A stretch of 64,000 bases of DNA from an uncultured Desulfobacter sp. (GTDB lineage Bacteria > Desulfobacterota > Desulfobacteria > Desulfobacterales > Desulfobacteraceae): positions 3,744,001 through 3,808,000 of the forward strand of contig OY762069.1 of assembly GCA_963665095.1 (NCBI GenBank). Direction: 5' to 3'. A program made the position numbers and the translations under genes. Of the stretch, positions 40,605 through 55,148 are shown piece after piece (position 1 is the stretch's first letter; each line of letters begins with the position of its first letter). The notes beneath the pieces were generated by a model. It made no database searches. It was given only the letters and a program-made list of their open reading frames with translations, and was not told where the DNA came from.

Positions 40605-41429
40605 TTATCTGGTTGGCGACGGTTTCAGTGAAAAAAGCTCTATGAAAAGTTTCTCATCCAGTTGCGGCAGCTCTCTTTGAACGCCCACTTCAAGCAGTTC
40701 TGCCGACATATTATTGAGAACCCGTAAGTTTCCTGTACAGTGCTCTACCAAAGCGGTAATTAAAGGTTTTGTCATGAGTTGAGGCGCTCCGGCCTGGTTT
40801 AGGCAATGCGCTATATAATCCAACAACTCTTCCCGGGTATAAGGCTCCAATTTTAACCGGAACCGGAGTCGACTGCCCAGGGCTACCAATGCACTGGTTC
40901 TGAACCGTTCCGGCAGCCGGGTATCACCACAGATAATGGTGGTCAATAAATTCTGGGAGTCAAAATCCATACTGTTGAGCAACCGAAGCTCATTCAGGCA
41001 TCCCGTAAGCATTTCCTGAGCCTCATCAATGAGCAGGACGGGCCTGAACAGGGTTGTTTTTATATGATTTTTCCATCGTTGCCGGAGATCTTTGAACCCT
41101 CCGTAACGGTTGGCCGGACTCAAATTGACACCAAACAATGTCCCCATTTCCCGATAAAAATCGGCTACACTGCTTTGGGGCCGCTCCATAACGCCGACAA
41201 CGACTTCATCAAGCTTGCCAAGCTGATGGGCAATCGCCTGCAGTATCTTGGATTTACCAAGACCGGGTTCTCCGGCAATCAATGCAAATCCACCGTTCAT
41301 GATCATATTTTCAAGGCGGATAATAAACGCGTCCATCCGGGGCGGATGCCATAATGAGTCCACAGGGATGTTTGGTAAAAAAGGATTGTACTTCAATCCA
41401 TAATAAGCCAGTAATCGTTTGCTGTTCAT
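40605..41429 (-). CDS. ExeA-like AAA ATPase
   Basis: YYGLKYNPF, GEPGLGKS, LLIDEAQ; TGATG overlap with the transposase stop. Confidence 0.88.
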   Translation of the reverse strand: MNSKRLLAYYGLKYNPFLPNIPVDSLWHPPRMDAFIIRLENMIMNGGFALIAGEPGLGKSKILQAIAHQLGKLDEVVVGVMERPQSSVADFYREMGTLFGVNLSPANRYGGFKDLRQRWKNHIKTTLFRPVLLIDEAQEMLTGCLNELRLLNSMDFDSQNLLTTIICGDTRLPERFRTSALVALGSRLRFRLKLEPYTREELLDYIAHCLNQAGAPQLMTKPLITALVEHCTGNLRVLNNMSAELLEVGVQRELPQLDEKLFIELFSLKPSPTR

Positions 41430-42874
41430 CACCTTTCCTCCATTGGCAAGTAGGCACAAGGCATTCCGGTTGCTGCATAATCGGACAAGAGCTTTTTAAG
41501 CAGGGCCGGTTCTAATCCGGACAGGGTTTCATGGCCGGGGTTGATTTCATCCGGTGTGGATCTGATACGACGGATTGCTGAAGCATTCTTTGTCTTGTCC
41601 TGGGGATAAATTGCGGCAAGCTTATTTCCGGTTCGTTTGTCTATCAGCCAGGCAACCGATTTATCCCAGGAGCAGAAACAGACATGAAGGCGCTGGATAT
41701 GATTAAACCGTGAAGGGATTTCAAACCGGATGCCCATCAAAGAGATGGTACCATCGGATAGACGCTGTTTTCTGGATTCACAGGCTGTAAACGAAAATTG
41801 AAGCTGTTCAGGTTCCGGTGCAGGACGGGACACATCCTTGCCGTCAAGGGCGCATTGCAATGGCGACATATGAATTTCATCATGGGTTGACTTGTTGTAT
41901 TCCATCTCGATCCAGGCCTGGGAGACCTGGTTTAAATATACCAGGGTCAAGGAATCCATCCGGCTCAGCATGGCGATCAGCCGGCCTTCAAGTGTACCCC
42001 AAAAGGCTTCCTGTTTCCCATTTTGATAGGGCGAGTACGGCAACGTGGTCTCATGGCTGACGCCCAATCGTTTAAGTCCATTGACGGTTTCATGAGCAAT
42101 CATGGCAGAACCATTATCTGTCATCAAAGCTCTGGGAAGCCCTCTTTTGTAAAACGCCTGGGACAAGCCGTGGATCAACACCTCTGCCGTTTCATTCAAA
42201 TACCATTGAATATGACAACACAGACGGGAGCGGTCATCAAGAATGCACAATGCCTTGGGCGTATGCCACTGACCTTTTTCGTCCACCACGCGCCTGCTGC
42301 ATTCGTGAAAGTCCAGATGCCATAATTCATGGATATTTTCGGCTTCATAACCGCGGACTTCATACGTTTCAAATCGTTTAGACGCTGATTTCTGTCCGGA
42401 TGTTTGATTTTTGTTATTGGAAGCCTTTTTTCTCCAACCCCGTTCAACCATACGCCTTCTCACACTTGCATAGGACGGCGGATTCTCACACAGGCCCTGT
42501 TCAGCGATTTCAGCTGCCAGGTTGTCGCAATGAAGCTGATAGCTCCATTGCGGATAAGTGTTGTACTGGACACCAAGAAGGCGGATCAATTCAGCATTCA
42601 ATGCTGTGGATTTGCCCATATCTGAACGGACTTTACGGCCCAGTGCCAGAATTGGGTCCTGACAATTTTTTGCCCTGTAATACCAGGCCTCAATGGTGGA
42701 AAAATGAAAACAGGTCGGTTTGTTCGTCACAGGATGAGAATAGATTTGACCTGCGAGCCGGGTCAGTTCAATTTGCAATTCTCCCTTTGCCGGAGGGCGT
42801 GCCAGTAAACCACCGATAACCGAAAAGCGAAATAATGCCCACAGGTCTGCCGGGTGTTGTGTTTTACCACTCAT
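41429..42874 (-). CDS. DDE integrase/Mu-like transposase
   Basis: LWHLDF, ILDDRSR, MTDNGS, NGKQE. Confidence 0.9.
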   Translation of the reverse strand: MSGKTQHPADLWALFRFSVIGGLLARPPAKGELQIELTRLAGQIYSHPVTNKPTCFHFSTIEAWYYRAKNCQDPILALGRKVRSDMGKSTALNAELIRLLGVQYNTYPQWSYQLHCDNLAAEIAEQGLCENPPSYASVRRRMVERGWRKKASNNKNQTSGQKSASKRFETYEVRGYEAENIHELWHLDFHECSRRVVDEKGQWHTPKALCILDDRSRLCCHIQWYLNETAEVLIHGLSQAFYKRGLPRALMTDNGSAMIAHETVNGLKRLGVSHETTLPYSPYQNGKQEAFWGTLEGRLIAMLSRMDSLTLVYLNQVSQAWIEMEYNKSTHDEIHMSPLQCALDGKDVSRPAPEPEQLQFSFTACESRKQRLSDGTISLMGIRFEIPSRFNHIQRLHVCFCSWDKSVAWLIDKRTGNKLAAIYPQDKTKNASAIRRIRSTPDEINPGHETLSGLEPALLKKLLSDYAATGMPCAYLPMEER

Positions 42875-43556: not shown

Positions 43557-43695
43557 ATCTCCTGCCCTGTTGGGGGTAATAGGGGCAGAAGTTCCATTGA
43601 TTATTTGCGAGATAAACGGGGGAGCTTCTGCCTCATCCCTGACATATCTTGCAAATTATCTTTAATTTTTCCATGATTTTTTGTGATCATTCTCA

Positions 43696-44975
43696 CCTCG
43701 GTAATAGACCAGGACCCGGGCAGCAACAATGTCATGGTCTACACCTACACCCACGATCCCCTGGACAACGTCACCCAAAAATCCACGGAACACGGAGACT
43801 ATAATTACGATTACGACACCCTCCAGCGCCTGACATCTGCCGACAACCCGGAAACCCGGACGGACGAGGCCTTTACCTACGACGCCGTAGGCAACCGCCT
43901 CACAGACGCCAAAAATACCGACACATGGACTTACAACCAAAACAACGAACTTGAAACCCACAGCAATACAAGTTATGAATACGATAACAACGGAAACACG
44001 GTCAAAAAGACAATCAACGGTGTAACCACCCTGTTCTTTTACAACCTGGAAGACCGCCTGGAGCGGGTAGAGGATGAATCCGGAAACATCATAACCAAAT
44101 ACGGCTACGATCCATTCGGCCGCAGGCTGTGGAAGGAGACCTCCGGCACCAAAACATACTTCATGTATGCCGACGAAGGCCTGATCGGGGAATACACAGC
44201 CACAGGCACAGAAATCAAAACCTACGGCTGGAAACCCGGATCTACCTGGGGCACAGACCCATTGTTCATGAAGATCGGAAGCCAATACTATTTTTACCAC
44301 AACGACCATCTTGGCACGCCCCAAAAAATGACCACTGTCAATGGATCTGTGGTTTGGTCAGCTACATACAGTTCGTTTGGAAAAGCTGAGGTTGATGCTG
44401 ATTCTACTGTTGAAAATAACTTTAGGTTCCCGGGACAGTATTTTGATGGGGAGACTGAGCTATATTATAATGGGTACAGATTGTACGATCCGGGGACTGG
44501 CCGGTATGTCTCGGCTGATCCTCTTAAGGTTAAAGGTGGAATTAACTTCTTTCTTTATTCTGAAAATAACCCAATTAAGCGAATTGACCCATATGGTTTA
44601 TTGTCATTTAAATGGCATGGGAATTGGGGCGGTCCTGGTTGGGCGGCAGGACAATATATTGCGGAGTCGGACCTTTCATATCAAGACTTTTTTCAAGTTC
44701 CAGCTCTGGATGAAAGAGATCGTTGTTATAGATATCATGATATGTGTATCTGGGCCGCTATCAAAAATAGCAAAAAAAATAACTGCTCTAACTCACAAGA
44801 CCTTAGCGATGCAATTGAAAGTTGCGACCATCGATTGGCTGATTGCCTTCGATATATAAGTCCGTTTAAACTATGCTTTTGGTATAGGCATGTTGGAGAT
44901 GATACATCAGGCCTTTTACCTGCTACGGTAGAAGCTGAACTGATTTTTGACGGTGTGGCACCAATTATTCATTAG
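43696..44975 (+). pseudogene. Rhs copy 3, 3' part with PLA2-like tip 5
   Basis: DPYGL then HGNWGGPGW...LDERDRCYRYHDMCI. Confidence 0.87.
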
Positions 44976-45030: not shown

Positions 45031-45369
45031 ATGAGTTTTAGCCATATTACTTTACTGTCATTTTTAATATTGGGCGGCCTATTATTTCTTATAGTATTTA
45101 TTTTTCGTAAAAATAATTATTTTAATTTAAGTTGGCCATTTGGAATAGCATTTTTTATTTTTGGAATAGGTTATCATTTTATTCTTTGGGATACTTATAT
45201 GATGCCTCAAGGCAAACTCGCCTTACTTATCCCAATAGGTTTGTCTTTACCGATTTCCATTTTAAGTTTTATGTTTAAACCTTTTGGCTTTTGTCCTTTT
45301 TTATGTTCGATGACTATTCTGGGAAGCCTTCAATATTACTATATTGGTTCTTTTTTCACTAAAAAGTGA
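45031..45369 (+). CDS. Putative multi-TM immunity protein for tip 5
   Basis: AGGAG RBS, low GC, hydrophobic, directly downstream of the toxin. Confidence 0.78.
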   Translation: MSFSHITLLSFLILGGLLFLIVFIFRKNNYFNLSWPFGIAFFIFGIGYHFILWDTYMMPQGKLALLIPIGLSLPISILSFMFKPFGFCPFLCSMTILGSLQYYYIGSFFTKK

Positions 45370-45440: not shown

Positions 45441-45599
45441 AGGGGTCCTGGGGTCACCCATTAAAGGCCGGGTCAAGAGAAAAAACACCTCCCCGTGAAA
45501 AAAATTCCTTTTTTTCTTGACCCTCGCACTATTTGTAATTTTTCAAAATCGACAGCTTTTTTCCCTGTCCGCGCCTGTTATTTCGTCGTGTGGTTCACG

Positions 45600-45875
45600 G
45601 AAATGATCCGCACCAGTCACCCATCAGGTTCAAGGCAGATGTGTACCAGGCAAAATGCGTGGTACACGGCCCCTGGTCCGTTCGGACCCCAGAAAATCTT
45701 CAGTGCCGTACCGTGGCTAATTGTTTGTTTTCAAATCTTATGGTTGTTAACCAACCCCTTACAGGCTCACGGCACAGGCGAATCAGGATATAAAAAACTG
45801 TGTGGCTGCAGCAGTTGCCAATCAAACCTAATGGTTCATACCAACCCCTGAAATGGTTCGCTGCTGCAGCCTTAA
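45600..45875 (-). ncRNA. Putative bridge/seekRNA with two target-binding-loop modules
   Basis: Two stem/internal-loop modules carrying AGGGGU and AGGUUUGA or AGAUUUGA; these match the reconstructed target GGGGTCAAACCT. Boundaries approximate. Confidence 0.65.
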
Positions 45876-45876
45876 T

Positions 45877-46893
45877 TTACCGGCAAAAAAGACCTACCTC
45901 ATCAAAGGGGATCTGATCCCGCATGATATAGTAGGATGCACGGCAAATTTTGTTGCTCAACGCTTTGGTGGCTACAATCCCGTTTCGTTTGGCATTTTTG
46001 CGCTGGAAAAATTTTCTTGCTTCCGGGCAATACCTTTTTGCAAAATTTGCAGCTTCTACATATGCCCAGGCAAGATACTTGTTTCCGTTTTTTGTATTAT
46101 TTCTTCCTTTCTTCTTCCCATTGGATATTTTTTCACTTTTAACACAACGGCAATAGGAAGAATAGCATCCTACCTTGGCAAACCGTTTGATCTCGCCAAC
46201 CTCAAGCATGATAGTCAGTGCCAGAATATTGCCGACACCCGGTATTGTTTTAAGCATTTCAAAGGCTTTTTTCATTTTAACCTGGGAAAGCGCCTGTCGT
46301 TCAATCGCTTTGATGGAATTACTCAGGTCCTTGATGGTCCTGATCTGAAGTGCTGCCATGAACCCCTGATTTGAATCAAACATTTGATGAACCTCAGGTT
46401 CCTTCAATTTTTTGATCGCATTACCTGACATTTTTATGCCAAGTTGCCTTGTTACCATGCTTTGTAAACTCAAAATTTGAGTTGTTCTTTGCTGCACAAA
46501 CAAAAGTCTTCGGCGTAAAATATCCCGGACAGCTCTTTCTTCCCGAGGATAAATGTAGCCTTCCGGCAGAATGTTTAACCGCCTCATGTGTGCGAGCCAG
46601 AAGGAGTCCCACTTGTCGTCGGTATACTTGAGCCCTTCGTACTGTTGAATGGCTGACGGGTTGGCCAGATGAACTCTATAGCCGTTTTCCTCAAGGCCAT
46701 CAACCAGCCAGTACCAGTTGTAGGTTGATTCTACCACGATACCTTCCAGATTTTGTCTGAACGGTTCCAGAATTTGAAGTACATCCGGCAAATTATTGTC
46801 AAGCCGTTTTCCAAATAACCGTTTGTCATTTTCATCAATGATTCCTACGTAATTATTGCTTGAATGCAAATCAATTCCAGCGTAGAGTTTCAT
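45877..46893 (-). CDS. IS110 DEDD transposase/recombinase
   Basis: GIDLHS, VVEST, YTDDKWDS, TIPGVG, ISNG. Confidence 0.93.
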   Translation of the reverse strand: MKLYAGIDLHSSNNYVGIIDENDKRLFGKRLDNNLPDVLQILEPFRQNLEGIVVESTYNWYWLVDGLEENGYRVHLANPSAIQQYEGLKYTDDKWDSFWLAHMRRLNILPEGYIYPREERAVRDILRRRLLFVQQRTTQILSLQSMVTRQLGIKMSGNAIKKLKEPEVHQMFDSNQGFMAALQIRTIKDLSNSIKAIERQALSQVKMKKAFEMLKTIPGVGNILALTIMLEVGEIKRFAKVGCYSSYCRCVKSEKISNGKKKGRNNTKNGNKYLAWAYVEAANFAKRYCPEARKFFQRKNAKRNGIVATKALSNKICRASYYIMRDQIPFDEVGLFCR

Positions 46894-47136
46894 TTGGCAC
46901 CTCCTAAATCCAAAGTGTTCTTGTTGAACTGGTACTATAGCAATCGTTGCTATAGTTAGGGAGGTGTCACTTTTTTTTCTAATTTGCGAGGACCTGCCAT
47001 CATACGATTCTATGAAAAATATCTGTGATGACAGGTAGCTTTCGTTCCTGCTTTCGCCTGGCCTTTATATGATTATCAAACCTTGATTATTGATTACGCA
47101 AGATAAGTGTTACTGGCCAAAATCCTGTCATGCTTT

Positions 47137-47460
47137 TGTTGAAAATAACTTTAAGTTCCCAGGACAGTATTGGGATGCGGAAATTGGACTGCATTATAAT
47201 TTTTATCGTTATTATGATTCTGGGATGGGGAGATATCTGACACCTGATCCTCTTGGGTTAGCTGGAGGGGGGAATACTTATATTTATGTGGAAAATAATT
47301 CTATAAATTGGATTGATCCTTTTGGCTTATATCAAAGCTTAGGAGGCGGATTTGGCTTACTGCAGGCATTATAGCAGTGTCATACTCGGTTAATACTGAT
47401 ACTTGTTGTGATGAACAAGGGAATAAACATGTACGTACAATTCAAACTATTTCATTTGGA
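47137..47460 (+). pseudogene. Orphan Rhs tip 6 (Gly/Cys-rich family), frameshifted and truncated
   Basis: VENNFKFPGQY...DPFGLYQSLGGGFG; another frame reads NTDTCCDEQGNKHVRTIQT. Confidence 0.8.
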
Positions 47461-48310: not shown

Positions 48311-48550
48311 TCAATTTTCGATAGATTTCATTAATTCAGGGACCGTTTTAGCGGATAGAATTTTTCCCTTCAAAGCCTTCAAGAGGTTGATATCCTGGAT
48401 GGTTTTAATCTTTGTTATAATTGTTTTACAGTCATCACTGTCACCAAACTTGATGCTGACAGCCAACTCAATGCTTTCCTGGGCCAATTCAAGTCCCTGT
48501 TCAAGTCCTTGAGCATGTCCTTCTTTCCTTAATTTTTCAGCCAATGTCAT
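48311..48550 (-). CDS. Putative intragenic RpnS-like small protein (79 aa)
   Basis: In-frame AGGAGG-N7-ATG at MTLAEK. Confidence 0.6.
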   Translation of the reverse strand: MTLAEKLRKEGHAQGLEQGLELAQESIELAVSIKFGDSDDCKTIITKIKTIQDINLLKALKGKILSAKTVPELMKSIEN

Positions 48551-49294
48551 GATGATACCTCCTTTTTCCTCAGACAACGTATTTGACACGATGGTGTGGA
48601 TTTTTTCTGTTGTAATATCCTCAACGTTGCTGAATAAATATTTTATCAGGGATTCAAAATATTGCAATCCTGTTTCCTGTTCGGACAGGTCCTTTAACAG
48701 CGCAAAAATATTTGGCAATTTGTCTTCGATGTCCGGGTCAAATATATGTTTGAACAGCAGCAGGACAACTCTTGCCGTAATTGTTCCCTTGATCTGATCA
48801 TCAGTATATCTGGATAAATCATACAGAATAAACTCAAAATTCGGGATGTAATCTGCAAGCTTGTTAACCGGTCCGTCAAAGAGCGAAGTAAAATGTTTAT
48901 CCACTGTCCATTTATCCTTGCCGTGATATAGAACCAGAGGGATTACAATGGGCAGTTTCCTGCTTCTGGATTGTTTGAACCCAAGCCGCCAAATTTTAAC
49001 CATATACTCAACAAGCTGGAGATGGATCACACTGTCCGAATAGCTTTTATGCTCAAAAAGAAAGTATACAAACCCTGTGGCATCTCCGATCCTGACTTTG
49101 TAAAGCATGTCTGAATAATAATCTTTCAGGTCCTTTTCAATAAAGGAGTCTTTGCATATTTCAAGGGTATCCAGCCGAACAAGTTCAATGACTGATGGCG
49201 GCAGGTAATTTTCCAGGAAGGATCTGGCATTGCGCAGGTTGCTCCAGGTTTCCCGGAACAGCTTGTCATGGGAATGGTACAGTTTGTTTTCCAT
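48311..49294 (-). CDS. Rpn/YhgA-like PD-(D/E)XK nuclease
   Basis: HDKLFR...SDMLY...FEHKS...PIVIPLVLYHG...MTLAEKL..EG..QG. Confidence 0.9.
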   Translation of the reverse strand: MENKLYHSHDKLFRETWSNLRNARSFLENYLPPSVIELVRLDTLEICKDSFIEKDLKDYYSDMLYKVRIGDATGFVYFLFEHKSYSDSVIHLQLVEYMVKIWRLGFKQSRSRKLPIVIPLVLYHGKDKWTVDKHFTSLFDGPVNKLADYIPNFEFILYDLSRYTDDQIKGTITARVVLLLFKHIFDPDIEDKLPNIFALLKDLSEQETGLQYFESLIKYLFSNVEDITTEKIHTIVSNTLSEEKGGIIMTLAEKLRKEGHAQGLEQGLELAQESIELAVSIKFGDSDDCKTIITKIKTIQDINLLKALKGKILSAKTVPELMKSIEN

Positions 49295-49350
49295 ATCGGC
49301 TTTGTATCATGGGGCCTTGTGGGCTGCAAGATTTTATCCCGTATCAGGTT

Positions 49351-52300
49351 TTGTAATCATGGGCCGGGCCATTGACCGGGCCACGGAAGAGCCCCTGGCA
49401 GACGCGGCGTTGAACCTGTTTATCACAGTCAGCGGTTTTGAGCGCAAAATCTCCGTGATGACCGGATCGGACGGCACCTTTACCCACACCTTTGAACCCC
49501 TTGAGAATGAAGCCGGCATTTTTTATGTGCATGCGGTCCATCCGGATCTTCTTGACCGGCCAAACCAGGGCAGCTTTATCATCAACAAGGTCCAGGTTAC
49601 CCCGTCCAAGATCCAGGTATCCGTACCAAGGAACTACGAGCAGAAGATCAGCCTCAAGGTGGTTACAGAAACAGGTACGGACCTGACCAACCTGACCGTG
49701 GCCCCGGGTGCAGAACTTCCCGCAGGTGTCCATCTGGACTGTGGTGACCCCATTGCCCTTGTACAGGGCGGCAGGACCGTAACCTTAAGCCCGGTTCTCT
49801 GGGCAGACAACAATGCCGAAGATGCCTCCCGGTTTGAACTGACAGTTACCAGCGACGAGTCAGCCGGCACACCATGGGCCACCATCCTTTTGGATGCCCT
49901 TTATTCTCAAAGCGAGCCGGCTCTCTACTTTACCCCGGACCATATAGAAACCGGCGTAGCCCAGGGCGACATGGTCACAGAGACCATCACCCTGAGCAAC
50001 AAGGGGCTTGCTACAATGACCGGCGTGGCCCTGACCCTGACCGACTCGCAGGGCAACGCCGCCCCGGACTGGGTACGGCTTAACACCCCGTCAGACATCG
50101 GCACTCTGGCCGTGGGGGACGAACGCAACGTCTCCATCAGCTTTCTTCCCGGGACTAACGAGCCCCAGGGCATGCAGATATTCTACCTGGCCATCACCAG
50201 CGACAACTATCCCGGGACAAAAATCGGCCTGTACCCCACCATCTCAAGTTCCGGCATCGGCAGTGTCCTGTTCAAGCTGTCCGATATCTACACAGGCACC
50301 TTCAATGCCAAAAACGAACTGATCCGGGGTCTTGGCAATGCCAGAATCCGGATGCAGAACGAAGCCACATTAGCCGACCACACAGCCACCACAGACGACC
50401 TGGGCGAATCCCTGTTCGAGGATCTGCCCTCAGGGGCATACAAATGCAAAATCACCGCAGACAACCACCAGGAGTACACCGGCCGTGTCTGGGTCAAGCC
50501 CGGCATTACCGTGGCAAAGGAGGTGTTCCTGGAGTACAACCTGATCACTGTGGAATGGGAGGTCAACGAGATCACCATTGAAGATAAATACGAAATCCTG
50601 CTCTCAGCCACATTTGAGACCGATGTCCCTGCTGCCGTGGTCGTAGCGGAACCCTTGTCCGTGACCCTGCCGGACATGGAAAAAGGCGATGTCTACCTGG
50701 GCGAGTTCACCTTAACCAACCACGGCCTGATCCGGGCGGACGACCTTGACATCCCCGTGCCTGACAGCGACGACAACTTCCAGTACGAGATCCTCACCGG
50801 CATCCCGGACTCCCTGGAAGCCAAGCAGCGGCTCACCATCCCCTACCGCATCACCTGCCTTAACTCCCTGGAAGCTGACGAGGAAGACCAGACCGGCGGG
50901 GGCTGCTACACCTACCAGAAGTGCATCCCCATATCTTACGGGTATGAGTGCGCCAACGGCCGGAACACCAGCGGTGCCACCCGGCACTGTTTTTACAAGA
51001 GCGGCGGCACATGCGGCTCCGGCAGTTCCGGCGGCAGCACCAGCGGCGGGGGCTCTTCCGGCTACTATTACTCAGGGGACGGCGGAGCCTCATCTTCATC
51101 CTCAGCCCCGTCCTATACCCCCATGGAAACAGACGAACAAAAATGCCTGCCCTCACCAGACCCCAAAGAACCCGAGTGCGACAAATGCAAGGCCACCAGC
51201 CAGAACCAGAGCATCACCGTAGGCAGTGAAGTGAACACCCTTATGAGAGAATACAGGGACGAAGCCACGGACCTGGCCGTTAAAACAGCCGGGGGCATGC
51301 TCTCCATCACCCGGCGGTACCGGTCCGGCACCTGGCAGTGGGATGACCTGAAGCAAATGGTTGACGGCCGTCCCGATGCCACCTCCCCGTACACCCCTTC
51401 CGCCTATGGCCCGGATTATGTAACCCGGGGGGATGTGCCCTATGCAAAAACCGCCTCAGGCATATACAAAAACGAGACATTCACCATAGAGCGCAAAACC
51501 GATACAGATCAATACCAGGCAGACAAGTACACGTTCAAAGACAAGCACGGCAACTGGATCATCTACGACGCTTCGGGCCGGCCCATGTCATACGGCAGCC
51601 GCACCGGCACCACAGCCACATACCTGTATAACAGCCAAAGCGATACCCGGCCGTACGGCCTTGAGGACCGGTACGGTTCCCTGGTGTTCTCGTTTGATTT
51701 TGACGGAGACGGCAACCTGATCCGGGTCTATGATGCCGATGCCAGGGAGGTGCGCTACGATTACACTGACGGCCGGCTCACCCGGGTCACGGATGTACTT
51801 GGCCATGAAACCTCTTACGAATACAGCAACGGCAACCTGATCAAAATAATAAACGCCCTGGGCCATGAACTCCAAATTACCTACAACTCTTCCAATGATC
51901 CCGTCAGGGTCACCAATCCCGGCGGCGGGGCCTACACCTTTGAATACGACTATGACAAGAACAAAAAGCAGTACTATGCCATGGTCAAAACCCCGGGAGG
52001 CACAGTCAGGGAGATGTGGTACTCTGCCGACAGCGACACCATCCGGGTGGACATAAACGGAGAGACCATCCAAAAGGTTGATGTGGACAGCAGGACCCAC
52101 ATCATCACAGACAGAGCCGGCAACCAAACAATCAAAACCTATGATGAAAACGACAACCTTAAATCCGTTACCTATCCTGACGGTACAAAGGTGCTGTACC
52201 AGTACGACCTGTCCCTGAACAAGCCGGTGCAAAAGCAGGACCGGCGCAACAGCATCACCACCTATGAGTACGATAATGCCGGCAACCTGATCCAAAAGGT

Positions 52301-55148
52301 TGATGCCAAAGGCACCACCACGGAACGTACCACCACCTATACCTATGATGCTGACGGAAACATCCTGTCTTCAACCATTGAGGCGGATACCAGCACGGAA
52401 GAAAGTACCACCACCTTTACCTACGATACTCAGGGCAACCTTGAATCCGTAACAAATCCCGAAGGCCACACCACCCGGTTCACAAACTTTGACATCATGG
52501 GCAATGTGCTTGCCAAAACCGATGCCAGGGGCAAAGAATGGTCCTACATCTACGATGCCAAAGGCCGGCTGACCTCCACCACAGATCCTTTGGACCACAC
52601 CACCACCTTTGAATACGATGCCCTGGACAACCGCATTGCAGTAATTGACCCCAATCTTAAACGAACTGAATACGAATACGACAACCTGTCTAACCTGGTC
52701 AGGGTCACAGACCCTCTGGGCAATGAGACCCTGATGACCTTCACCCCAGACAAAAAGCTGGCTTCCCAAACGGATGCCGCAGGCAGCGCCACAGCCTACG
52801 AGTACGACAATGAAAACCGCCTGACCCTGACCACAGATCCTGCCGGAAATGAAACTCAGCTCACCTATACGGACGGGTCCGGCTGTTCCTCCTGCGCCTC
52901 AGGCACCGGCAACCAGATCGACACGGTAACCTACCCAACCTTCAAGAAGCAATTCACCTACGACACCCAGGGAAGAAAGCTGACGGAAACGGACATCCTG
53001 TCTGATACGGAGTCCAGAACCACGGCATTTGAATACGACAATGCAGGCAACCTGATCCTGAAAACCGACGCACAGGACAACGACACCCTTTACGCCTATG
53101 ACGCCCTGAACCGCCTGACGCTCGTAGCAGATCCAGCCGGCGGCATAACCCGGTACGAATACGATGCCCGGGACAACCTGGTCAGCCTGACCGACGCCAA
53201 TGACAACACCACAAGATTTGAGTATGACAGGGCCAACCGCCTGACAAAAGAGATCCGCCCCATGGGCCAGACAACAGCTTATGTCTACGATGAAAACGGC
53301 AACCTGGCCCAGAAGACAGATGCCAGGAACCAGCTTATCACCTATACCTATGACGCCGCCAACCGCCTTACCCAAATCAACTACTACGCTGACGCATCAG
53401 ACGCAGACCCCGCCAAAACCGTCAAGTTCACCTACGACAACGCCGGCAATCTGCTCACCTGGAACGATGGCTCTGCATCCGGCACATTTACCTATGACGA
53501 CCTGAACCGCAAGCTCACTGATACAGTCAACTTCGGGCCGTTCACAAAAGCCATTGCCTGCACCTGGGCTGCCAACAGCCAGAAAAACAGCTACACAAAC
53601 CCGTCCGGCAATGTTTACAATTACGCCTACGTCAACAACCAGCTCGCAGGCATTGAGCTGCCGGGCACCGGCACCATCACCACCAGTGCCTACAAATGGA
53701 ACCGGCCGGCCACCATCCAGTACCCGGGCGGTACTAAACAAACCCGAACCTATGACCCGCTCATGCGCCTGACCTCGGTAACAGACCAGGACCCGGGCAG
53801 CAACAATGTCATGGTCTACACCTACACCCACGATCCCCTGGACAACATCACCCAAAAATCCACGGAACACGGAGACTATAATTACGATTACGACACCCTC
53901 CAGCGCCTGACATCTGCCGACAACCCGGAAACCCAGACCGACGAGGCCTTTACCTACGATGCCGTGGGCAACCGCCTCACAGATGCAGACAACGCTGCTA
54001 CCTGGACCTACAACCAAAACAACGAACTTGAAACCCACAGCAATACAAGCTATGAATACGATAACAACGGAAACACGGTCAAAAAGACGCTCAACGGTGT
54101 AACCACCCTGTTCTTTTACAACCTGGAAGACCGCCTGGAACGGGTAGAGAACGGCGCAGGCCAGGTCATCGCCCAATACGCCTACGACCCCTTTGGCCGC
54201 AGGCTGTGGAAAGAGACCTCCGGCACCAAAACATACTTCATGTATGCCGACGAAGGCCTGATCGGGGAATACACAGCCACAGGCACAGAAATCAGAACCT
54301 ACGGCTGGAAACTCGGATCAACCTGGGGCACTGATCCATTGTTCATGAAAATCGGAAGCCAGTACTATTTTTACCACAACGACCACCTCGGCACGCCTCA
54401 AAAAATGACATCCATCTCCGGAGCTGTTGTTTGGTCTGTTAAATATTCATCATTTGGTAAGGCCGAGGTTGATAGTTCCTCTACGATTGAGAATAACTTG
54501 AGATTCCCGGGACAGTATTTTGATGGGGAGGCTGGATTTCATTATAATTTGTGGAGATACTATAACCCTAATTCGGGCAGATATATAAAAGCTGATCCTG
54601 TAGGTTCTGAAGGTGGTATAAATTGGTTTCAATATGTCTCAAATAACCCCGTTAAGCTGACGGATCCTTGGGGACTTTTCCAATATTACCACAGATGGGG
54701 AGGCCCTGATTATACTGCTGGTATAAAAGGCAAATCATGGGAGACATTGTCTAAAGCTATCAGGAAAGATGTTTTAAGACAAATCCAAAATGGCTGGGAT
54801 CCCTACTCTCCGTACGAACCATACGATGAACAAGATACCTGTTATATGTATCATGATATCTGTTATGGGGAGAGGCGAATTGATTGTCGAAGTCAAAAAG
54901 GATGCTTCAATGATTGTGTCAGGGCTAAACTTAATAAATGTGATAATGAATTAATGCGCTGCCTAATTAAAATTGGAATGTCTGGGGATGCTTTATCCGA
55001 AGCTCATAGGCTATCAGCTATACCAGTATTTGTAATACAACCAAAGGTTAGAACGGGGTATCATAATTTTATCCAAGGAGGAAGAACACCTCCTACATCT
55101 GGGACGTGGGATCTTACAACATCGATGCATACTCTTGTAAATGAATAA
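49351..55148 (+). CDS. Rhs copy 4: 5'-truncated but uninterrupted, PLA2-like tip 8
   Basis: ORF 49230-55148, homology starts ~49351; DPWGL then WGGPD...DEQDTCYMYHDICY. Confidence 0.88.

Follow-up and report, generated by a model that had tools for sequence, protein, structure and literature searches.

Bridge RNAs are described as a single two-stem unit in the available text of PMC12045711 (here and below, papers and preprints are cited from the portions of their text available to us), and in IS621 the pairing of the handshake guides favors insertion and disfavors excision (PMC11208158 section 11; PMC13626964). A long non-coding part 3′ of the gene and sub-terminal inverted repeats are features of the IS1111 type, in which the repeats measure 7–17 bp (PMC11208160 section 12), while the guide RNA lies downstream of the gene with the top-strand match first (PMC11187229 section 9). 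Donor guides are placed in a multi-loop in many IS1111 elements (PMC11208160), and the Evo-PIN preprint mentions deviating structures.

The element that we analyzed lies on the minus strand at 45455–47078 of the window, the whole 64,000-nt stretch of DNA from an uncultured Desulfobacter sp. (contig OY762069.1) to which all coordinates refer. This span includes a 2-nt core, CA on the plus strand, at each end (45455–45456 and 47077–47078), and was delimited with a second copy and an empty allele. The empty site proposed in an earlier, sequence-only reading of this DNA proved real, as a contig of run X14 connects 45453 directly to 47076. The second full copy in the genome is identical in sequence and has different flanks with the same junction core; both full copies occupy exact sites of the target-binding loop described below as loop B, and the genome also holds a partial copy with a nearly identical 3′ end and several fragments. 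Taken together, the empty allele, the two copies and the family flanks indicate IS110-type insertion around a short core, without target duplication beyond it. Just inside each end is a perfect 8-bp sub-terminal inverted repeat, TAAAGGCC at the right end (45462–45469) with its counterpart at the left end (47060–47067), a length within the IS1111 range, and the guide region is downstream of the gene with the top-strand match preceding. The target halves on the plus strand are TGGGGT (45449–45454), read by the first guide of loop B and also of a second target-like loop, A, and AACCT (47079–47083), which is exact to B and has one non-wobble mismatch to A.

The gene encodes an IS110 recombinase of 338 aa (45877–46893, minus strand; PF01548 and PF02371, with NF033542 above its cut-off) that combines the DEDD RuvC-like domain with the Transposase_20 domain. 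Judged from spacing and alignment, D8, E55, D93, D96 and S257 stand at the places expected for the DEDD residues and the catalytic serine. The protein matched the IS621 and ISCro4 structures weakly (E about 4e-7), a weak NCBIfam match to TIGR-Tas reached 21.7 bits against a cut-off of 100, and the nearest name among relatives is the label ‘ISGsu4 family’ on the database record of a 46% relative. Domains, sub-terminal repeats and the downstream non-coding part thus bear out the earlier assignment to an IS110-family element of IS1111-type layout. A conserved hairpin covers the transposase ribosome-binding site (46896–46968, minus strand); it is kept in most relatives, and RNA-library contigs were deepest there, although these contigs come from relatives with 8 to 16 differences over the end region and cannot show strand, ends or level. 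Searching Rfam with the element returned no RNA family and a single weak chance match inside the gene.

Several observations concern the ends and surroundings of the element. TTGACC at 45471–45476 (minus strand) is a candidate −35 box of a promoter that would form on end joining and overlaps a target-like site located within the element at 19 bp from its end; no end-to-end joint of the element was among the joints listed for run contigs, and promoter and terminator scans gave sites not in excess of shuffles. The right end (45457–45476) is tandemly duplicated over 19 bp in seven loci, two of identical sequence (L001, L034, L037, L040, L241, L257 and L265), and run X14 also has a joint from 45474 to 47080; the internal target-like site may act as a false end that leaves a 19-bp footprint. 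A decayed related element, L276 (genome G000, C1 about 3402000–3402481), is without B and A and stops exactly at the internal donor-guide sequence, with GGGG adjoining its end, so the DNA of a guide may act as an element end. The element is surrounded by RHS/YD-repeat genes, variable C-terminal cassettes and a small membrane-type frame, which we take to be the layout of a polymorphic toxin locus; the frames of this setting in the open reading frame list are at 43683–44975, 45031–45369, 47090–47374 and 49230–55148. An integrase with an ExeA-like ATPase, as a pair, and an Rpn-like (PD-(D/E)XK) frame presumably flank the region (40605–42874 and 48311–49294).

We assessed the non-coding end in relatives and predicted an RNA with three loops, all on the minus strand, with a common arrangement of CC and UGG motifs flanking two guides. 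Loop B (45804–45871), identified from covariation, flanks and the handshake tally given below, is a target-binding loop with guides at 45844–45849 and 45825–45829, a core match at 45823–45824 and a handshake AU at 45821–45822. Loop A (45706–45777), identified from stem covariation, target tracking and its linker, is target-like, with guides at 45754–45759 and 45734–45738 and a core match at 45732–45733, and a 12-nt linker (45720–45731) replaces the handshake. The donor domain (45604–45785) was obtained from a consensus fold of 60 sequences with compensatory changes; it contains guide 1 (45692–45701), two inner hairpins, guide 2 (45618–45624) and a handshake AC (45616–45617). In that fold the segment immediately 5′ of A pairs with the one immediately 3′ of donor guide 2, and this outer stem (45778–45785 with 45604–45611) encloses loop A, so that B is predicted to stand alone and A to form a side branch inside the donor domain. 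Columns of the B outer stem were 86–97% paired, with 7–43 compensatory changes each (109 non-redundant sequences).

The motifs named in the sequence-only reading were recovered, namely the B stems (45804–45814 and 45861–45871), the B guides (45822–45829 and 45844–45849), the A guides (45731–45738 and 45754–45759) and TCACCCAT (45617–45624). Its A stem (45703–45709 with 45769–45775) did appear in a single-sequence fold, but was dropped because it was 74% paired across 84 non-redundant relatives, compared to 94% for the register 45708–45715 with 45768–45775. Its claim that A and B are modules of one architecture likewise stands in part: both match target within the CC/UGG frame, but A is enclosed by the donor outer stem and the spacings are unequal, with 2 nt from the core match to the closing UGG motif in B and 11–13 nt in A for 64 of 85 cluster representatives (range 6–17). 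Folded singly, B was more stable relative to shuffles than A (z = −4.75 and −2.53). The single-sequence fold partly pairs B’s guides with each other, and a fold that keeps the guides open costs 13.5 kcal/mol above the single-sequence minimum over 281 nt, which suggests that the open form would need protein. When the 420-nt end was subjected to dinucleotide shuffling, at least two target-matching guide pairs appeared in 1 of 1000 shuffled sequences. Beyond the donor domain (window about 45560–45600, and relatives) there is a further AACC motif, together with a conserved GAAA(U)AAC..GG..GCG, unpaired in the consensus fold, possibly a half-module or processing signal.

The survey comprised 281 loci including the window, from genomes and metagenomes, with metagenome loci chosen by the donor-guide pattern independently of A or B. 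The donor guide could be anchored in 214 loci and both donor guides in 203; those with a stop codon and both donor guides gave 136 distinct ends, a count that leaves out 10 loci without a parsed first donor guide. Three loops (one B, one A and the donor loop) were found in 120 of the 136 and four in 9, which have two B loops and one A, such that an RNA of exactly two loops is not the rule in this family. Loop A was present in 129 ends, with transposase identities among relatives of 49–100%; by eye, the 7 ends in which A was unparsed include one true deletion (L057), with long inserts in A in most of the others. Five plasmid relatives from Beta- and Gammaproteobacteria (46–51% identity) have the same layout by eye and pattern search, and profiles recovered parts of it in three of the five. 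In genome G316, three near-identical copies (L253, L266 and L267) occupy two kinds of site even though their transposase contains a stop and they lack the B guides, donor guide 1 and the whole of A; a complete relative within that genome probably mobilized them in trans. These results indicate that the three-loop RNA is a real and widespread predicted variant of the bridge RNA.

Of 157 loci, 121 have a donor guide 2 identical to the element end and another 27 differ from it by a wobble in the core, and an ATGGATG variant of the guide recurs in the element end in 4 of 7 cases, while donor guide 1 matches the element in part only. The proposal that TCACCCAT is a donor guide was therefore upheld, as guide 2 covaries with the end. 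The core, which had been placed at a shared TCA junction, needed correction: a clade at 52–53% identity has a right junction TG|C rather than TG|A, and the third base of TCA changes with the target in this retargeted clade, so that the core is 2 nt, CA on the plus strand and TG on the transposase strand.

In 121 of 130 loci (106 AC, 15 CC), and also in both TC cases, which are plasmid loci, the donor handshake, formed by the two bases past the core match in donor guide 2, was identical to the target dinucleotide that comes next. Among 163 B loops, the corresponding dinucleotide is AT in 146 and GT in 13, in agreement with the donor’s AT, and the left donor end is AT in 135 of 136, although the ends were located by a pattern that favors AT. 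These dinucleotides of B and of the donor loop are, as predicted from this agreement, handshake guides of the IS621 type. Loop A has no such dinucleotide: at the handshake place, one of 156 loops reads AT and another AC. We also considered A as the carrier of an excision handshake and rejected this, because agreement of these two bases with the following two of the target was seen in only 1 of 156 loops, such that the handshake is missing and not replaced by one favoring excision; the linker of A had no visible covariation with target or donor.

Agreement between guides and insertion sites was scored over five flank bases at 114 unique sites for which both guides and the variable flank were parsed, after manual correction of two mis-parsed A guides; a further six disagreements between parses were left in their original form. 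Both loops matched the flank, B (4.10 vs. 2.41 when shuffled) more closely than A (3.39 vs. 2.38), and the order of the two held with one site per cluster (85); the shuffled values disregard the kinship of the relatives, which overstates significance. At 127 positions in 106 single-B sites where the loops differ, the flank had the base of B in 97, of A in 14 and of neither in 16, and 7 of the 14 A-following positions can be read by B through wobble. Among 83 sites with different guides, 37 were free of non-wobble mismatches to B only, 2 to A only, 18 to both and 26 to neither. At position −2, the flank was C in 26 of 31 sites with C in B and U in A, compared to 24 of 60 with U in both. On the other flank, B matched better at 66 of 122 sites, A at 8, with 48 ties. 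In 34 disjoint nearest-neighbor pairs, changes in the flank were mirrored by B in 30 of 57 (0 in the opposite direction) and by A in 12 of 57 (3 opposite), and four of five later sites with both guides had differing guides, all exact matches to B. B had a non-wobble mismatch at 32 of the 114 sites; these counts may therefore be blurred by guide RNAs that other copies supply in trans. The two guides of B covary with both target halves, which supports the earlier claim that B matches both target strands, and B likely chooses the insertion site, to judge from these comparisons.

The sequence-only reading had instead taken A as a second, independent insertion guide that widens the target range, which the 97 B-following against 14 A-following positions and the 37 B-only against 2 A-only sites do not support. 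We consider it quite unlikely that A is a less efficient second guide that widens or buffers the target range, even though several counts lean that way. Its flank match is above chance, A is exact at 3 of the 83 discordant variable-side sites, one of them of the predicted AATCT type (L091), it matches better than B at 8 of 122 other-side sites, and in L355 it matches one flank better than B; these cases also speak against site choice by B only. At position −3, A’s base is found in the flank of 5 of 23 sites where the two loops differ and of 1 of 11 where they agree. Against this, A rescued 2 of 28 sites poorly fitted by B while fitting 18 of the 55 that B fits, it has no handshake, and in this genome the set of sites open to A lies inside that of B: with wobble allowed, 19 empty sites are A-compatible, all among the 27 that are B-compatible, and there is no exact A site in this genome. 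Thus, A cannot widen the range here if wobble is tolerated, and site matches suggest that wobble pairs are tolerated in targeting. The window’s own guide pair occurs at eight sites (AGGTT five times, AGGCT, AGACT and AGATT once each); the AATCT target proposed for A is therefore found at one of the eight, but B can read AATCT by wobble.

A degenerate repeat family as target, also proposed earlier, was not borne out in this genome. The palindromic repeat TACTC-TGACCCC accounts for 37 of 1050 TGACCCC sites genome-wide (G000), and this common class fits neither guide, so we rejected an abundant repeat as the target here; one such repeat, at about C1 6041500, carries an insertion of the left end of another IS110 relative (66% identity). 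A reading in which A recognizes the other arm of a palindromic target was likewise rejected, with no fit by eye in a few flanks. An RTCAA motif occurs upstream in 44 of the 114 family flanks.

The likeness between A and B of the same element is high at the guide positions (z = 11.0 and 7.6) and low at neighboring unpaired positions (z = 1.3, 0.6, 0.7 and −3.4), values that shuffling without regard to kinship inflates, and confinement to pairing positions argues against simple copying from B. Between neighboring relatives, A had changed at 25 of the 57 positions with a changed flank base vs. 16 of the 113 with the same base, and A changes with wholly different targets, in unrelated target classes. 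In light of these patterns, we think it improbable that A survives from an ancient duplication of a loop, as a structural relic retained for loading a recombinase dimer or stabilizing the donor domain, with guides that resemble the target through common descent or sporadic copying from B. A’s place inside the donor domain would suit such a relic, as would the lag of its guides behind those of B and their lean to U and A next to the core (C>T 31 and G>A 21 of 103 differences), which implies weaker pairing; 7 of 50 changes shared by A and B in one outer segment (pair test) leave room for copying. Yet likeness restricted to DNA-pairing positions and changes of A with the target in close relatives and unrelated classes are not what a relic predicts. 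Conservation in 129 of 136 ends together with likeness at pairing positions only bears out the claim that A is selected to match target-like DNA, and the family comparison indicates a selected, DNA-reading loop with another job than site choice.

The sequence-only reading had also proposed a natural multi-guide array. Loop A does not fit this, as it does not predict insertion sites, and the units are not equivalent, with B, A and the donor loop differing in arm length and nesting; the idea fits the minority of relatives with two complete B loops. The evidence for true multiplexing in these 9 of 136 relatives is suggestive and thin. The guides of the two B loops always differ in the listed double-B elements, although one of the 9 ends has a degenerate B. 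In genome G075, one element in four copies occupies a site that only the first B loop fits in two cases and a site that the second fits best in the other two, where the first B loop and A could also read by wobble. The flank fits the first loop in L025, L063 and L084 and the second in L019 and L020, and further family searches added no double-B elements.

Comparison across the family establishes the predicted three-loop fold, the covariation of guides with flanks, the presence of handshakes in B and the donor loop but not in loop A, and the enclosure of A by the donor domain. We tentatively favor, at somewhat below an even chance, a predicted bridge RNA of three homologous loops in which B reads the insertion site, the donor loop the joined ends, and A acts as a conserved accessory that keeps loosely to the target and grips the flanks of the resident copy during exit. 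By analogy with IS621, each loop would bind one recombinase dimer, B and the donor loop would form the insertion complex, and their handshake pairs would drive insertion forward and oppose excision. A might then replace B in an excision or direct-transfer step, with its weaker pairing next to the core and without a handshake, holding the resident flanks where B’s handshake would hinder and picking no new sites, so that entry and exit would be served by separate loops of one RNA. The excision product of IS621 reportedly increased when each target arm had four mismatches (preprint 10.64898/2026.08.31.748434 section 7), and an RNA with only the target loop was active in direct transfer (preprint 10.1101/2025.10.25.684509, sections 5 and 8). 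However, excision by IS621 can proceed with only the donor loop, and a combination of two target-loop dimers is termed non-productive (PMC13626964; preprint 10.64898/2026.08.31.748434), so an exit loop may be unnecessary or inhibitory.

These two IS621 results favor a role for A as a brake or clamp, which we regard as unlikely overall: an A-bound dimer on the flanks or on target-like sites, without strand exchange, would limit excision, re-insertion or donor–donor recombination. A reads target yet is without a handshake, as such a clamp might, and in IS621 it is on the element ends that two target-loop dimers are non-productive (PMC13626964). Handshake pairing already disfavors excision in IS621, though, and a clamp should match the flank at least as well as B, whereas A matches it worse. 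A broader version of the exit-loop reading is possible but rather doubtful, namely that the RNA is direction-switched, with the handshake-bearing entry loop B and the handshake-free exit loop A alternating on the same donor loop to encode insertion vs. excision, and with some lineages adding B loops as a multi-target array. How an IS110 element exits with an RNA tuned for insertion is disputed (cut-out, copy-out, donor-only or direct transfer), and a natural third loop that reads target without an insertion handshake lets the question be tested directly. Were A an exit loop, it would offer a ready design for one-way or reversible bridge recombinases, and the double-B relatives are possible natural templates for multiplexed targeting.

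No bridge or seek RNA was reported to carry a second target-reading loop in the available literature text, figures apart, which also took in PMC12288879, PMC13604230 and preprints 10.1101/2025.05.14.653916 and 10.64898/2026.10.21.760802; given the multi-loop of PMC11208160 and the deviating structures of Evo-PIN, the fold may have been drawn earlier without comment. Two proteins with the motif of the element’s family are in the tree table of PMC11208160, as available, without an ISfinder name, and no sequence in the source-data file of PMC11187229 has the family’s NWYW motif. TIGR arrays resemble this RNA in having repeated two-guide units read by a Nop-type domain (PMC12045711), but here the units are unequal, reading one target and the donor, and the effector is an IS110 recombinase. 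The element shares with the IS1111 seekRNA elements ISEc11, ISPa11 and ISKpn4 a downstream non-coding region, sub-terminal repeats and a top-strand match 5′ of the bottom-strand match, and their short, target-only seekRNA could correspond to loop B; seekRNAs are, however, described in the available text with one pair of target matches per RNA (PMC11187229). With CazIS110-1 it shares a free target loop beside a full bridge RNA in direct transfer (preprint 10.1101/2025.10.25.684509), but the free loop of CazIS110-1 is a fragment of its single target loop, whereas here two distinct, differently built target-reading loops are encoded. As in IS621 and ISCro4 (PMC11208160, PMC11208158, PMC13626964), a recombinase with DEDD and Tnp domains goes together with two guides around an inner hairpin and a 2-nt core, and, as in IS621, the handshakes match the other DNA after exchange, with the AU of the target loop set against the AT of the donor. 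Unlike in these elements, the RNA lies downstream of the gene of an only distantly related recombinase, the core is TG/CA rather than CT, and there are three predicted loops instead of two, with a multi-branched donor loop enclosing a target-like loop that is free of a handshake.
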